From: a virus
Taxonomy: Duplodnaviria > Heunggongvirae > Uroviricota > Caudoviricetes
Direction: 5' to 3' (one strand)
IMG/VR virus record: IMGVR_UViG_2671180979_000013
Length of the DNA stretch: 4,491 nt
In this document: positions 1-4,491 of the stretch, piece by piece
Layout: each line of letters begins with the position of its first letter
Numbering within the stretch: the stretch's first letter is position 1
Made by a program: the position numbers and the translations under genes
Notes under the pieces: generated by a model
Seen by the model: the letters and a program-made list of their open reading frames with translations, nothing else
Database searches by the model: none
Told to the model about the DNA's origin: nothing

Positions 1-1184
1 CGGTCCTTCAGGGCGCTGAAGCTGTAGCGAAACCCCACGCCGTTATCATCCACCACCACATCGCTGTTGGTGTACGGCCACACCACATCCGACGGGCGGT
101 CCTGAACGAACGTCAGCGTCTGACCGTTCCATACCGGCATACAGCGCATCGCCGAGCAGAAATCACTGAGAACATCCCACGCCTTACGCTGTTGTGCCAG
201 GTACGCATTGAAGGTCATCCGCGGCTCGGTGCCCCCGAAGCCATCCGGCACCATCTGGTCGCAGTACTGCCCGATGGCATACAGCGCCCACTTGTCCACA
301 TCCGCCGCCCCCAGACGTTTTCCCATGCCGTAGCGCGGGTGAGTCAGCATGTCCCACAGGCACCAGGCAGGGTTGTTGCTGTATGCCGGTTTCAGGCTGC
401 CGTCCCAGATGCCGCTGTAAGTGCGTTTTTCCGGGTCATAGTTTGACGGTACCTGGATGATGCGACCGCGGATATGGTAGTTCACCGTCATCTGCTGACC
501 GCCAAACTGCTCCGCATCCACCTGCAGCCCCACAATCGCCGTGTTCGGGTAGCACTGTTTCACATCGATGATTTCGGTGTATGACGACCAGAGCGTCTTA
601 TTCTGCAACTGGTCCGTGGTGCTGTCCGCTGTCTCCCGGACCATCCGGATGTTAAAAGGACGGGGAGGCAGATTATCCAGAATCACCGACGCCAGGTACT
701 GTGAGGTGGTCTTGCCGTTAATGGTGACATCCTTTTCCGTCATCCATTTACCACCACGCTCAAGCTGAATCAGCAGGCGGACAGACGTCGGGTTACGGTC
801 ACCCTTTGAGGTGGTCTCCACCAGTGACTGCACCCCGAAGGTAACCCGCAGGCGGTCAATGTTCGCGGACGTAATGGTGCGCGTTACCGGCTTTGCCTTC
901 GTCACTTCCACGCCCAGTCCGGTTTCAGCTCCGGAGGACTCAAAGCCTTCCGGTGGTGTCTGCTCCTGCTCCCCAGCGCGCCAGACCGCGGTCACACCGT
1001 GTATCACAGGATTGCCGTCCGTGTCCGTCAGCGGGGTTTTGTTCACCAGGATACTCTGCAGCCCCTTCACCGGGCCTTCTATCGGTCCCTCACCAATCGC
1101 ATCAATCACACTCATCATCTGCGTGGATTTGAGATTGTCCTTCGCCTCGCGCGGTGTGTGCGCCTTGCCGCCACCTTTGCCCAT
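1..1184 (-). CDS. J: Host specificity / tail tip protein J, N-terminal ~394 codons; 3' end lies beyond the window start
   Basis: ATG at 1184..1182 on the minus strand, preceded by AAAGGGTGAG. My translation begins MGKGGGKAHTPREAKDNLKSTQMMSVIDAIGEGPIEGP...SNNPAWCLWDMLTHPRYGMGKRLGAADVDKWALY...CSAMRCMPVWNGQTLTFVQDRPSD, which matches the lambda gpJ N-terminus as I recall it. The frame stays open to position 1. Absent from the ORF track because no stop falls inside the window. Confidence 0.9.
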   Translation of the reverse strand, partial: MGKGGGKAHTPREAKDNLKSTQMMSVIDAIGEGPIEGPVKGLQSILVNKTPLTDTDGNPVIHGVTAVWRAGEQEQTPPEGFESSGAETGLGVEVTKAKPVTRTITSANIDRLRVTFGVQSLVETTSKGDRNPTSVRLLIQLERGGKWMTEKDVTINGKTTSQYLASVILDNLPPRPFNIRMVRETADSTTDQLQNKTLWSSYTEIIDVKQCYPNTAIVGLQVDAEQFGGQQMTVNYHIRGRIIQVPSNYDPEKRTYSGIWDGSLKPAYSNNPAWCLWDMLTHPRYGMGKRLGAADVDKWALYAIGQYCDQMVPDGFGGTEPRMTFNAYLAQQRKAWDVLSDFCSAMRCMPVWNGQTLTFVQDRPSDVVWPYTNSDVVVDDNGVGFRYSFSALKD

Positions 1185-1212
1185 TGTCTCACCCTTTACT
1201 GTGATAACTGTT

Positions 1213-1247
1213 ACGCACAAAAACAACAGGCATCCCGGAGGATGCCT
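1213..1247 (-). terminator. Perfect 9-bp stem / 4-nt loop hairpin followed on the minus strand by TTGTTTTTGTG; intrinsic-terminator-like, about 28 nt upstream of the J ATG
   Basis: Plus strand 1226..1247 is caggcatcc-cgga-ggatgcctg, a perfect inverted repeat. On the minus strand it is followed by ttgtttttgtgcg (plus 1225..1213). Function not demonstrated. Confidence 0.3.
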
Positions 1248-1286
1248 GCATCATGACGGAATAAAACTTCTGAATATCTTCACATT

Positions 1287-1315
1287 TTCACAAACTGACT
1301 GTGGTGCTAATAATT
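1287..1315 (+). promoter_or_regulatory. Candidate sigma70-like promoter on the plus strand, antisense to the tail operon
   Basis: TTCACA at 1287..1292, then a 15-17 nt spacer, then TAATAAT at 1308..1314. Each hexamer matches consensus at about 4 of 6 positions. It sits inside the AT-rich island, so chance matches are likely. Confidence 0.2.
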
Positions 1316-1387
1316 TCTCTGCGTTAATGTTTTTTTGCCCGAGCACCAGAAACAAAAATAACTCCTTAACGTTAATCTTTGTCTGTC

Positions 1388-1420
1388 CCCGCAACTCTGC
1401 GGGATTGTTTTATTCTTTTT
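1388..1420 (+). terminator. Plus-strand intrinsic-terminator-like hairpin with a T-rich tail
   Basis: cccgca (1388..1393), loop actc, tgcggg (1398..1403), then attgttttattcttttt (1404..1420). The T-tract overlaps the complement of the I stop codon. On the minus strand the A-tract precedes the stem, so it is not a terminator for the tail operon. Confidence 0.3.
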
Positions 1421-2099
1421 ACCCCTGCCGCCCGATAACCACAACCTTTCCGCCACCGCCTTCATCACGGGTACTGATGTCCTGGGATATCCGTCGTGAA
1501 CCAACCAGCATTTCACCATAAGGCACCGGCATCGGGTTACCCTGGGCAATCATATTGTCCAGTGAGGAAAAATACGTGTTCTGTTTACCGTTATCCGTTG
1601 CGCGGTAATCCGGTGTTTTTGCCTTCGGTGCCAGCATCTGGGCCACACCGCCCAGTATCATGCTAGCCCCCAGTGAAAACAGCATCGTGGTGGCAGAAAA
1701 ACCACCGGCTGCCAGGGCTGAACCCCATAACGCCATTGATGCCCCGGCCGTGAAGAACGACCCCACGATGGCCGCCGCCCCCAGCACAATCTGCAGTCCG
1801 CCCTTTCCGGCTCCGACCAGTCGCGGCACAATATGGATGACCGCCCCCTCACCCAGAGGTTCGTGAAGACGGGCGTACACCGCCTCCGGTGCCGTGTCCT
1901 CACCGCGAATACGTATCTGGTACCAGCCTTCGTTCATCTGACGGCGAAAGCCCGGCATCTGCATCGACAGGGCACGGATGGCTTCCGCTGCCGTGTTCAC
2001 GTACAGGCTGAGGCGGCGGCCAAATCGTTGCAAATCCCCGTGAAGGCAGATGCGTGCCAGTGGCGGTGACGCCAGACAGAATGCGTTCGTCGTTGCCAT
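1419..2099 (-). CDS. I: Tail assembly protein I (gpI-like), 226 aa
   Basis: Complete ORF in the track. The N-terminus MATTNAFCLASPPLARICLHGDLQRFGRR..., the tract HIVPRLVGAGKGG (Gly-Gly at residues 100-101), a Gly/Ala-rich hydrophobic segment, and the C-terminal NGKQNTYFSSLDNMIAQGN...GEMLVGSRRISQDIST match lambda gpI as I recall it. A GGGAGAGG Shine-Dalgarno-like motif lies upstream of the ATG. The start overlaps the K 3' end by 103 nt. Confidence 0.92.
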   Translation of the reverse strand: MATTNAFCLASPPLARICLHGDLQRFGRRLSLYVNTAAEAIRALSMQMPGFRRQMNEGWYQIRIRGEDTAPEAVYARLHEPLGEGAVIHIVPRLVGAGKGGLQIVLGAAAIVGSFFTAGASMALWGSALAAGGFSATTMLFSLGASMILGGVAQMLAPKAKTPDYRATDNGKQNTYFSSLDNMIAQGNPMPVPYGEMLVGSRRISQDISTRDEGGGGKVVVIGRQG

Positions 2100-2750: not shown

Positions 2751-3449
2751 TTACTGCGAAAGTTTATTGATGGAAAGGAAACCGCCAAAATTAGCCACCA
2801 TGCCGCGCATCTCACACCCGCGCATGCACTTGCTGCATCTGTCCTTACGGATATCCGTGGTGGGTTTATCGAACTCATCCGCCACAGCCCCGCCCGTGTA
2901 ACCACACTCATCAGAGCGGTAGGTCCACATACAGGTGTTCGCCAGCATGATACGACCGGGAAACAGCGCTCCGTCCGTCTCCGTCGGTGTTGCCAGCACA
3001 AACGAGGCTGTCATGGCCGTCAGCTCTGACATCTGCTCCACCACCCAGCGGTCGCTCAGCTCCTGCTCCGGGTCCGCTTCCGGATTGCCCGCCACAAAAT
3101 TCACCGCATCCAGAAAACGGGCATACACCCGGCGGCGGACCACCGTGGCCCCCACCAGGCTCTGCAGGTCCTCCGCCATCCCGGTGACCAGACCAAACAG
3201 ATTGGACACCGTCAGCGACGGTCTGGCACTGCTGCCCTTCCCGTTCATCTCAAAACCGCTGCCGTCAATCGGGTATGCCTGATATTGCCGCCCCTGCCAG
3301 GTGACCGGCTCCCCTTTTTCATTCAGCTCATTACAGAAAAAATACCGCTCACCGCCCTGCACCGTCAGGTCAATTTCCCAGAGCACCACCCGCGGTGACT
3401 GCTCTGATTTAACCGACTCGTTCAGACTTTCTTCGTGAATATCCTGCAT
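2751..3449 (-). CDS. L: Tail tip protein L (gpL-like), 232 aa, full length
   Basis: Start at ATG 3449..3447 (MQDIHEESLNE...), overlapping the M stop as ATGA. The first 9 codons of the track ORF 2751..3476 are an upstream extension into M. The C-terminus ...CSKCMRGCEMRGMVANFGGFLSINKLSQ and the conserved tracts VVLWEIDL, GGERYFFCNE, PVTWQGRQYQ and FPGRIMLANTC match lambda gpL as I recall it. Confidence 0.92.
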   Translation of the reverse strand: MQDIHEESLNESVKSEQSPRVVLWEIDLTVQGGERYFFCNELNEKGEPVTWQGRQYQAYPIDGSGFEMNGKGSSARPSLTVSNLFGLVTGMAEDLQSLVGATVVRRRVYARFLDAVNFVAGNPEADPEQELSDRWVVEQMSELTAMTASFVLATPTETDGALFPGRIMLANTCMWTYRSDECGYTGGAVADEFDKPTTDIRKDRCSKCMRGCEMRGMVANFGGFLSINKLSQ

Positions 3450-3475
3450 CAGTTCACCACCTGCTCTATCGTGCA
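2847..3475. repeat. Direct repeat copy A (629 bp): 5' 603 bp of L plus the 3' end of M
   Basis: Hand alignment to 3863..4491 at a constant offset of 1016 bp gives about 26 substitutions and no indels, roughly 96% identity. Confidence 0.9.
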
Positions 3476-3790
3476 ACTGAAATCACTGTACCGGGCATTA
3501 TCCGTGACACTCCACTCACGGCACACAACCCTCACCGTCCGGTTATGTTTCGGCGGTCGCCACAAAAAGGCACGGTAACCACCATGCCACGATAAAAACT
3601 CTTCCAGCCAGCGCCGGGTTGACTCATCCGTCACCCGGAACACCGCCTGAAACGTCTTCAGTTGAGGATTCAGCCCTGTGGGGCGGCGCTGTTCATAACC
3701 GTCACCAAACCGCACCCTCACCACCGACGGCTTCTCACTCACCTGCATCCCTTCACGCGGGACCAGATGCAGCGTTTTTATCTCAGCCAC
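3449..3790 (-). CDS. M: Minor tail protein M (gpM-like), 113 codons, GTG start
   Basis: The C-terminus ...FSCTIEQVVN and the internal VRFGDGYEQR and WHGGYRAFLW tracts resemble lambda gpM. The start codon is GTG at 3790..3788 (checked by hand), preceded by GGAGG with an 8-nt spacer. An in-frame TGA lies immediately upstream of the GTG, so no longer N-terminus is possible. Confidence 0.8.
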   Translation of the reverse strand: MAEIKTLHLVPREGMQVSEKPSVVRVRFGDGYEQRRPTGLNPQLKTFQAVFRVTDESTRRWLEEFLSWHGGYRAFLWRPPKHNRTVRVVCREWSVTDNARYSDFSCTIEQVVN

Positions 3791-3862
3791 TCAGCATTCC
3801 TCCGTCACGTCGCATGGACAGCATCACCGCCTGCACCCGCTGGTCAATCAGCTGCACAAGAA
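3783..3862 (-). other. Orphaned 3'-terminal fragment (about 26 codons) of the gene upstream of M; by lambda gene order this would be the tape measure gene H
   Basis: A minus-strand frame reads ...LVQLIDQRVQAVMLSMRRDGGMLSG* with its TGA at 3785..3783, overlapping the M GTG start (GTGGCTGA). The frame is closed by a stop at 3893..3891, and sequence similarity to copy A ends at 3862/3863. Identification as H is by position only. Confidence 0.4.
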
Positions 3863-4465
3863 ACGGATATCCGTGGTGGGGTTGTCGAACTCATCCGCCA
3901 CAGCCCCGCCCGTGTAACCACACTCATCAGAGCGGTAGGTCCACATACAGGTGTTCGCCAGCATGATGCGACCGGGAAACAGCGCTCCGTCCGTCTCGGT
4001 CGGTGTAGCCAGCACAAACGAGGCCGTCATGGCTGTCAGCTGCGACATCTGCTCCACCACCCAGCGGTCACTCAGCTCCTGCTCCGGGTCCGCCTCCGGA
4101 TTGCCCGCAACGAAATTCACCGCATCCAGAAAACGGGCATACACCCGGCGGCGGACCACCGTGGCCCCCACCAGGCTCTGCAGGTCCTCCGCCATTCCGG
4201 TGACAAGGCCAAACAGATTGGACACCGTCAGCGACGGTCTGGCACTGCTGCCCTTCCCGTTCATCTCAAAGCCGCTGCCGTCAATCGGGTACGCCTGATA
4301 TTGCCGCCCCTGCCAGGTGACCGGCTCCCCTTTTTCATTCAGTTCATTGCAGAAAAAATAGCGCTCACCGCCCTGCACCGTCAGGTCGATTTCCCAGAGT
4401 ACCACACGCGGTGACTGCTCTGACTTAACCGACTCGTTCAGGCTTTCTTCGTGAATATCCTGCAT
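3848..4465 (-). pseudogene. Truncated second copy of L (L'): 202 gpL codons plus 3 unrelated codons (FLCS) and a stop
   Basis: 205-aa track ORF. Residues 1-202 differ from the L copy at 2751..3449 at only 2 positions (E to Q, K to N). The sequence diverges completely after ...PTTDIR, at plus coordinate 3862/3863. The start ATG 4465..4463 overlaps the stop of an upstream M copy as ATGA. Confidence 0.75.
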
Positions 4466-4491
4466 CAGTTCACCACCTGCTCTATCGTGCA
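3863..4491. repeat. Direct repeat copy B (629 bp, runs to the window edge): L' plus the 3' end of a second M
   Basis: Same alignment as copy A. Similarity ends sharply at 3862/3863; plus 3857..3862 caagaa does not match 2841..2846 gtcctt. Confidence 0.9.
4465..4491 (-). CDS. 3' end (last 8 codons plus stop) of a second M copy; the rest lies beyond the window end
   Basis: The reverse complement of 4468..4491 encodes CTIEQVVN followed by TGA (4467..4465), identical to the C-terminus of M at 3449..3790. Confidence 0.5.
   Translation of the reverse strand, partial: CTIEQVVN

Follow-up and report, generated by a model that had tools for sequence, protein, structure and literature searches.

PasB is one of five 'pathogenicity-associated' small regulatory RNAs (sRNAs) that were identified by Hfq RIL-seq (in which interacting RNAs are ligated and sequenced) in enteropathogenic Escherichia coli (EPEC) O127:H6 strain E2348/69 (Pearl Mizrahi et al. 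2021, PMC8550237). The RNA is encoded on the minus strand of NC_011601.1 (1466343–1466261, 83 nt) and was detected on Northern blots with the probe AATCCCGCAGTGATCGCGGAGCT. Its level falls in an hfq deletion (log2 fold change −6.8 and −2.4) and is higher in static lysogeny broth than under virulence-inducing conditions, and the RIL-seq table gives a U-tract of 7 and apparently 37 interactions for it (PMC8550237). In enterohaemorrhagic E. coli (EHEC) O157:H7 Sakai, the RNAs EcOnc22, EcOnc23 and EcOnc24 were assigned to prophages Sp15, Sp14 and Sp11, respectively, and described as mutual homologues (Tree et al. 2014, PMC4104026, Table S2). EcOnc22 ran at ~85 nt on Northern blots and was destabilised in an hfq deletion (PMC4104026); the targets of EcOnc22–24 were listed as unknown in a 2021 review. 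No connection between PasB and EcOnc22–24 is drawn in the Pas papers (PMC8550237; bioRxiv 10.64898/2026.05.13.724894). Here, we describe a stretch of 4,491 nucleotides from a virus of the Caudoviricetes (IMG/VR record IMGVR_UViG_2671180979_000013; this whole stretch is called the window below), in which an AT-rich island lies between the tail genes I and J. We consider it probable (about 80%) that this island is a moron, an autonomous antisense unit between I and J of a lambdoid prophage of the Shiga toxin (Stx) phage type, which yields a ~90-nt sRNA of the PasB/EcOnc22–24 family. The cargo is a divergent, unannotated allele of a known sRNA family and not a new type of element.

A divergent allele of the PasB/EcOnc22–24 family

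All tail genes of the window were located on the minus strand, in the order M, L, K, I, spacer, J. The I–J spacer (1185–1418) is bordered by the J start codon (ATG, 1184–1182) and the I stop codon (1421–1419), both on the minus strand. On the plus strand of the spacer, the following features were predicted:

1266–1288, plus strand: conserved block just upstream of the −35 element, recognised by its conservation, with the dyad-like TCTGA-N6-TCACA (1269–1284)
1287–1314, plus strand: sigma-70-type promoter-like site from the promoter scan, TTCACA (1287–1292), a spacing of 16 and AATAAT (1309–1314), 10/12 matches; antisense to the tail genes and facing away from J
1321–1411, plus strand: predicted ~91-nt sRNA of the PasB/EcOnc22–24 family, from the covariance model and alignment, with the 5′ end set from the −10 box
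1344–1349, plus strand: allele-specific CACCAG insertion in the predicted sRNA
1361–1365, plus strand: conserved box ACUCC in the predicted sRNA
1374–1380, plus strand: conserved box UAAUCUU in the predicted sRNA
1388–1411, plus strand: Rho-independent terminator of the predicted sRNA from the terminator scan, CCCGCA-ACTC-TGCGGG (1388–1403) followed by AUUGUUUU
1407, plus strand: private G interrupting the U-tract of the predicted sRNA

The U-tract of the predicted sRNA ends 8 nt before the I stop codon. Its longest unbroken U run is 4 in the window versus 7 in relatives, where the criterion in Table S6 of PMC8550237 is a U-tract of at least 4. The segment 1321–1411 folded better than shuffled sequences (z = −2.35).

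A covariance model (R1) was built from 20 distinct relatives, with the window copy left out. It matched the window at 1321–1411 on the plus strand with 64.8 bits (E ~6e-11), covering model positions 1–94 of 94. The scores of the same model were 97.9 bits for PasB of E2348/69 and 83.7 bits for the three Sakai spacers, and no match was obtained in the lambda I–J spacer or in ~30 lambda-type junctions from other species. The genomic location was the same in all three cases. In prophage PP6 of E2348/69, PasB falls between the end of I (1466255) and the start of gpJ (1466496), hence in the I–J spacer and antisense to the tail genes; EcOnc22, EcOnc23 and EcOnc24 are all found in I–J spacers, antisense to tail genes, in the current Sakai record; and the RNA predicted for the window likewise lies between I and J in antisense orientation. 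The promoter position was conserved across alleles, and the window allele appears to have a sigma-70 promoter of its own.

The window spacer aligned end to end with the pasB-locus spacer of E2348/69. Besides the I–J spacer of a lambdoid prophage and the antisense orientation, PasB and the window RNA share a homologous promoter block, the conserved boxes, the terminator stem and the U-tail. The two could also be distinguished: the window RNA is only ~71% identical to PasB, with 19 gap columns and a longest common word of 16 nt, and has a 6-nt 5′ insertion (CACCAG), a terminator loop of 4 nt versus 11 nt in PasB, and a G in the U-tract. The −10 box is TATAAT in E2348/69 versus AATAAT in the window and in Sakai. 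A survey of PasB published in 2026 used blastn with a word size of 28 and a query coverage above 75% (Zhu, Shabalina & Storz 2026, bioRxiv 10.64898/2026.05.13.724894). Because the longest word common to the window and PasB is 16 nt, the window allele, together with the Sakai type, was beyond the reach of that survey. On its sequence, the window copy is best classed as a family relative, and not as a 'PasB variant' in the sense of the survey.

Like the window RNA, EcOnc22–24 belong to this family by the model and have AATAAT as the −10 box; they are Hfq-bound, Hfq-stabilised RNAs of ~85 nt. They differ from the window in a divergent 5′ region, in the −35 region (TCCGGC) and in a longer terminator loop. 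Taken at face value, the 2014 coordinates of EcOnc22 would put its Hfq peak at the J-proximal hairpin of the spacer (see below), a placement that was overturned by calibrating the coordinates with two other sRNAs. AsxR was found at 1268629–1268681, exactly 282 bp after stx2B as stated in PMC4104026, and thus at +135 to +139 relative to its 2014 coordinates; AgvB1 was found at 1941920–1941981, at +137 to +146. Unless corrected by +135 to +146 nt (as determined at 1.27 and 1.94 Mb), the coordinates of the 2014 Table S2 misplace the EcOnc RNAs on NC_002695.2. With an offset of ~+138, the EcOnc22 Hfq peak fell at ~853–913 of the extracted locus (L085), inside the model match at 837–927 of the same locus. 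From these sequence comparisons, we infer that PasB and EcOnc22–24 are alleles of one family of the I–J junction.

A scan of the whole window with Rfam at E values up to 1 returned no match, be it to AgvB, AsxR, STnc100, Esr41, IsrK or any other curated family; as a positive control, AgvB, AsxR and STnc100 were detected in Sakai loci. The anti-sRNAs AgvB and AsxR (Rfam RF02702 and RF02703), which are sRNA morons of Stx phages downstream of PR′, resemble the I–J RNA in being short, Hfq-dependent, independent units at conserved moron sites. They differ from it in their position in the late promoter/lysis region and in having no sequence or model similarity to it, and a role of the I–J RNA as a sponge is unsupported. 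An identity with AgvB or AsxR was also rejected on location, as those RNAs are encoded downstream of PR′/stx, outside the tail region.

Composition and distribution of the insert

The spacer was described in the initial annotation as an AT-rich 234-bp island, which was borne out by computation. The 234 nt have a G+C content of 40.2% versus 58.9% for the remaining window (z = −5.4), and no other 234-nt segment fell below 50.4% (mean 59.1, sd 3.5). The G+C contents counted by hand for three blocks (~32%, 35% and 57%) were close to the computed values of 30.0% (1261–1320), 35.0% (1321–1380) and 56.7% (1681–1740, inside I). The contrast is therefore genuine on computation, and it is not uniform within the spacer: positions 1185–1250 have 48.5% G+C (the lambda spacer has 47%) and positions 1251–1418 have 36.9%. 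The tail genes around the island are tightly packed, as had been noted, with an overlap of ~100 nt between K and I and a gap of 10 nt between L and K; the M/L junction, given as ATGA, proved to be a one-base overlap that reads TGATG, a trivial slip. The I–J gap of lambda had been given as much shorter and indeed measures 60 nt (I ends at 15444, J starts at 15505).

As relatives, we used 80 IMG/VR contigs with an I protein at least 95% identical to that of the window; lambda-type controls were taken from a scan with one genome per species. Spacer sizes among the 80 contigs were 234–260 nt, about 340 nt and 851 nt. Each of the 80 contained one model match, antisense to I and starting 8–11 nt after the I stop codon. 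In lambda, Shigella flexneri, E. ruysiae and Citrobacter werkmanii, the spacers were 60–71 nt long and lacked the element. The spacer is thus neither universal nor uniform among lambdoid I–J junctions.

Other cargo was also observed between I and J. An antisense sodC (Pfam Sod_Cu) was present there in the 851-nt class and in a prophage of Citrobacter meridianamericanus, and the 851-nt class matched the sodC-F1/F2 primers of PMC2569942. The morons sodC-F1 and sodC-F2 of O157:H7 (D'Orazio et al. 2008, PMC2569942) are like the island in being cargo at I–J that is antisense to the tail genes, and differ from it in coding for a protein, a Cu,Zn superoxide dismutase. In the 851-nt class (10 of the 80 loci; L078, L056, L130), the place of the sense hairpin and sRNA promoter is taken by sodC with its terminator. 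Directly downstream of the sodC terminator, the body and terminator of a PasB-like RNA persist (~89 bits); in these loci, such an RNA would either have no promoter or arise from the sodC mRNA, as a 3′ extension or by processing. In the distant I–J junctions of Pseudocitrobacter faecalis and Enterobacter wuhouensis (L122, L125; spacers of 662–666 nt), the tail-gene strand had an open reading frame (ORF) of ~160–180 aa whose product has a signal of lipoprotein type (…LISACAPQ / …FISGCAPQ) and is without a match in Pfam; this is another moron at I–J. The I–J junction is a moron hot-spot.

Morons were defined by Juhala et al. 2000 (as cited in PMC4104026), and the island agrees with that description. 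It is extra DNA between conserved genes that is present in some relatives only (60–71 nt versus 234–851 nt), and its G+C content (36.9% at 1251–1418) stands apart from that of the remainder (58.9%). Promoter-like and terminator-like sites flank the predicted RNA on the plus strand, and expression in the lysogen may be assumed from relatives. The suggestion in the initial annotation of a compositionally foreign, moron-like accessory insert was supported by the G+C contrast, by the presence of the element in all 80 IMG/VR relatives and its absence from lambda-type junctions, and by the other cargo at the junction.

Conservation across alleles and spread of the window allele

Across 37 distinct alleles, the terminator stem and U-tail were essentially invariant and the boxes ACUCC and UAAUCUU were well conserved. 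The 5′/central region and the terminator loop were hypervariable, with insertions and deletions. The terminator stem was kept in all relatives with a loop of 4–17 nt, the loop of the window being the shortest. Hairpins predicted in the 5′ part of single alleles found no support across alleles and were discarded.

The most conserved segment of the island, above the RNA itself, was the block TTCTGAATATCTTCACATTTT (21 nt) upstream of the −35 element. The half-sites TCTGA and TCACA were invariant in 37/37 distinct alleles, with changes confined to the 6-nt spacer between them, and the −35 hexamer varied. This pattern suggests that the block 1266–1288 is a candidate activator-binding site or an UP-type promoter element. 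The TCTGA-N6-TCACA dyad is CRP-like (half-site matches of 4/5 and 5/5) and is centred near −44.5 from the predicted start. Canonical CRP sites are centred at −41.5 or −61.5. Since the dyad is off these positions, its identification as a CRP site was rejected and is kept as a speculative lead only.

Unannotated copies sharing 98.9% identity with the 91-nt RNA of the window were present in 283 complete E. coli genomes, O157:H7 86-24 and O121 RM8352 among them. The sole difference from these copies is the G at 1407 in the U-tract, which was found in the window and in an identical IMG/VR contig (L005). In 86-24, the nearest island allele is located in a decayed prophage (L134, NZ_CP017251.1 2562338–2567628) that has lost K and I, retains L only in part and has frameshifts in J and H. 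This arrangement fits an sRNA gene that was retained after phage function was lost. Matches to the family were found in 1,034 genomes with the RNA alone and in 1,569 with the RNA and its flanks, corresponding to about one fifth to one quarter of complete E. coli genomes, often with several copies each. The I–J junction was unannotated in every record examined.

Alternative explanations

Several observations weigh against a functional sRNA of the PasB/EcOnc22–24 family in the window. Expression as a discrete Hfq-bound RNA has been shown in the relatives PasB and EcOnc22 only, and the 5′ end used here is a prediction; the published coverage-based start of PasB would fall at ~1336, ~15 nt further downstream. 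There is no known target motif for PasB. An RNAalifold consensus among the alleles contained the invariant terminator stem only, with zero covariation, and argues neither for nor against RNA structure. The link to EcOnc22 needs the coordinate offset measured at 1.27 and 1.94 Mb, which was assumed to be equal at 2.2–2.9 Mb; an equal offset is supported because all three peaks are identically placed relative to their J genes. As to the allele itself, its model score was the lowest of the 80 relatives, the private U-to-G change in the U-tract (UUGUUUU) could weaken termination or Hfq binding, the terminator stem has 6 bp versus 7 bp, the −10 box is AATAAT and not TATAAT, and the tail region around the element is rearranged and contains a partial M/L duplication. 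The −10 box is no argument against expression, because the expressed EcOnc22 of Sakai also has AATAAT. The lowest score and the private G leave some room for a weakened copy.

Taken further, the low score, the private G, the shortened terminator (6 bp, 4-nt loop) and the non-consensus −10 box could mark a decaying allele, that is, a copy derived from the PasB family that no longer makes a functional sRNA and persists as a remnant in a prophage that is rearranged and possibly defective. The adjacent tail region with its truncated L duplicate fused to the 3′ end of H, and the position of the nearest allele (86-24) in a prophage without K and I and with a frameshifted J, are in line with decay. 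We nevertheless regard it as unlikely, since ~280 genomes of different serotypes carry an otherwise identical allele with the short loop and AATAAT, which argues for maintenance, and since the Sakai EcOnc22 with its AATAAT was detected on Northern blots. In addition, a 6-bp G+C-rich stem followed by four terminal U residues is still workable as a terminator, and the window has intact I, K, L and M genes and an intact start of J.

A mainly cis-acting element, in which antisense transcription or the antisense RNA would control the tail genes together with the sense hairpin (by pairing with late mRNA, by head-on interference or by insulating J in the lysogen), would account for the perfect complementarity of the sRNA to the I–J late mRNA, which is given by construction. 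It would also agree with the terminator-like hairpin on the tail-gene strand just upstream of J, which shows a compensatory change, with the presence of three unrelated elements of hairpin and T-run at this position (lambda, the ~240-nt and the ~340-nt classes), and with the promoter-proximal block being better conserved than the RNA body. However, many trans partners of PasB appear in RIL-seq, and its behaviour is that of a classical Hfq sRNA. The predicted RNA lies ~135 nt from the J ribosome site without overlap, and its complementarity to the initiation regions of J, I, K, L and M was no greater than that of shuffled controls. Lambda works without the insert, and in the sodC class the tail genes still work without the sRNA promoter. 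With so many trans partners of PasB, a cis role is disfavoured; it is also unnecessary for explaining the data, and we consider it very unlikely. A small protein encoded on the tail-gene strand, such as the ORF MKINVKELF..., a hypothetical gene in the annotation of phage PhiR12_1, is hardly tenable. Many alleles do have an ATG-initiated ORF of 22–41 codons beginning with MKIN, one of which is the annotated ORF of PhiR12_1, and the window has AAGGAG on the tail-gene strand. Against this, the window lacks the ATG (ACA AAG ATT AAC), the length and C-terminus of the ORF shift with 1-nt differences in run length and with stops in the −10 box, and the frame in which the conserved block is read differs between alleles. 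An ORF of at least 25 codons is missing altogether in some of them. A protein-coding spacer was accordingly rejected, as its small ORFs had neither frame conservation nor a Pfam match.

Proposed mode of action

For the sRNA of the PasB/EcOnc22–24 family that we favour, the following mode of action would apply. In the lysogen, with the late tail operon silent, host RNA polymerase would start at TTCACA-16-AATAAT, probably aided by a factor or by the C-terminal domain of its alpha subunit on the invariant block 1266–1288. From the sequence features and the homology to RNAs detected on Northern blots, transcription is predicted to end at the hairpin and U-tract at 1388–1411. The terminator hairpin, the preceding U-rich stretch and the 3′ U-tail would form the Hfq-binding module, and Hfq would stabilise the RNA, as has been shown for PasB and EcOnc22. 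The unstructured, hypervariable 5′/central part, which includes the anti-Shine–Dalgarno-like ACUCCUU, may pair in trans with host and prophage mRNAs; the basis for this is the RIL-seq partners of PasB. Hfq-dependent trans-acting sRNAs usually consist of a constant Hfq-binding module and a variable targeting region. Because this layout is typical of such sRNAs, Hfq-dependent base-pairing in trans is the most likely mode for the window RNA.

A more far-reaching interpretation, which we put forward tentatively and hold to be doubtful, is a 'seed-swapping' cassette. A near-invariant promoter/operator and an Hfq terminator scaffold would enclose a targeting region of ~50 nt that diversifies by insertions, deletions and recombination, so that co-resident prophages, of which a genome can have up to several, would provide different specificities under one input. 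PasB and EcOnc22–24 would be two alleles of this cassette, and TCTGA-N6-TCACA would be the site of a host regulator, possibly CRP-like.

The J-proximal part of the spacer and neighbouring sequence

The remaining part of the spacer and the flanking genes comprise the following features:

1185–1225, minus strand: J leader, with the Shine–Dalgarno-like GGGTGAG ~4–10 nt before the J ATG (1184) and the T-rich tail TGTTTTTGTG (1225–1216)
1226–1249, minus strand: intrinsic-terminator-like hairpin GCAGGCATCC-TCCG-GGATGCCTGT, then the T-run TGTTTTTGTG, from the terminator scan
1–1184, minus strand: 5′ part of J, host-specificity/tail-tip gene, beginning MGKGGGKAHTPREAKDNLKS..., from sequence, translation and annotation of relatives; downstream neighbour of the spacer
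1419–2099, minus strand: I, tail assembly gene of 226 aa, from the ORF list, with relatives annotated as tail assembly protein; upstream neighbour of the spacer

The I protein was 67% identical to I of lambda (tblastn). The J-proximal hairpin has 10 pairs, 6 of them G-C, in the terminator scan, and with its G+C-rich stem and U-run it has the appearance of an intrinsic terminator. Its fold had an energy of −21.4 kcal/mol (z = −4.6). Among 11 distinct variants, pair 7 alternates between T-A and C-G, a compensatory change. The single-step intermediates of this pair were equivocal with regard to the strand, as three fit G-U on the minus strand and two on the plus strand. The U-tail, which was on the minus strand in 11/11 variants, is the sole feature that assigns the hairpin to this strand. 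A conserved role on the tail-gene strand is likely, for example halting transcripts that are not antiterminated before J, or stabilising the upstream message.

In the lambda spacer, as at 1185–1249 of the window, the J ribosome site is preceded by a hairpin and a T-run. The lambda spacer differs in being 60 nt long with 47% G+C, in lacking an antisense promoter, sRNA and model match, and in the sequence of its hairpin, which is unrelated. The hairpin lies on the late-operon strand (AAACCGCC-TGCG-GGCGGTTTTGTCATTT, followed by a T-run, ~22 nt before the J ATG; the spacer is L004 1446–1505). We know of no described function for it. Because the 60 nt of lambda also hold a hairpin and T-run before the J ribosome site, 1185–1249 is the positional counterpart of the whole lambda spacer. 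The J-proximal 65 nt are outside the insert, and the true insert is ~1250–1418, ~169 of the 234 nt.

A non-homologous hairpin with a T-run at the position of the window hairpin was found in the ~340-nt class as well as in lambda. The spacers of ~336–344 nt (L066, L080, L084, L089) had an extra J-proximal segment of ~100 nt with a strong bidirectional terminator-like hairpin, AAAGAGAAACCCCGGTATC-AGCA-GATACCGGGGTTTTCTTT, which takes the place of the window-type hairpin in this class. A second small transcript, antisense to the J start region, could end at this extra hairpin.

A partial tandem duplicate of ~630 nt was observed in the window, in which 3863–4491 is 96% identical to 2847–3476 and comprises the end of M and the first ~200 codons of L. 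The truncated L′ (ending ...TTDIRFLCS*) is joined near 3848–3862 to the apparent 3′ end of the tape-measure gene H, and a second, complete M-L-K-I set comes after the L′/H junction. The partial M/L duplicate suggests that the tail region was rearranged; with 96% identity, it seems to have arisen as two related prophages recombined, not through misassembly. A weak terminator-like site was predicted inside J, on the plus strand at 1018–1035 (TCCGTGTCCGTCAGCGGGG, then GTTTTGTTCA). Its sequence is part of the 'PromEDLFor' primer, which was used for cloning the sodC-F promoter region, and the site is probably merely coding sequence. Tail DNA of lambda or E. coli prophages was also encountered on short or low-coverage contigs assigned to Streptomyces flavalbus, Neobacillus, Shewanella and Bradyrhizobium (L089, L092–L105 and others). 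Its occurrence on contigs of such unrelated species is almost certainly due to contamination of the assemblies with lambda or E. coli DNA, and the many matches to lambda DNA on such contigs served solely as lambda-type controls.

Implications

The value of these findings lies mainly in annotation and in joining the earlier work on PasB (EPEC, 2021) and EcOnc22–24 (EHEC, 2014). The general understanding of phage or sRNA biology is unchanged. Rfam has no model for the sRNA family of the I–J junction, and the variability of the family goes far beyond what the published PasB survey was able to detect, with BLAST-based surveys undercounting it. The invariant upstream block is a useful candidate regulatory site. 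If the 'seed-swapping' interpretation were true, the published distribution, which covers PasB-like copies only, would greatly underestimate the family, and one signal would tie all alleles together. For the biology of the pathogens, the family implies that Stx-type prophages deliver related, non-identical Hfq-dependent regulators.

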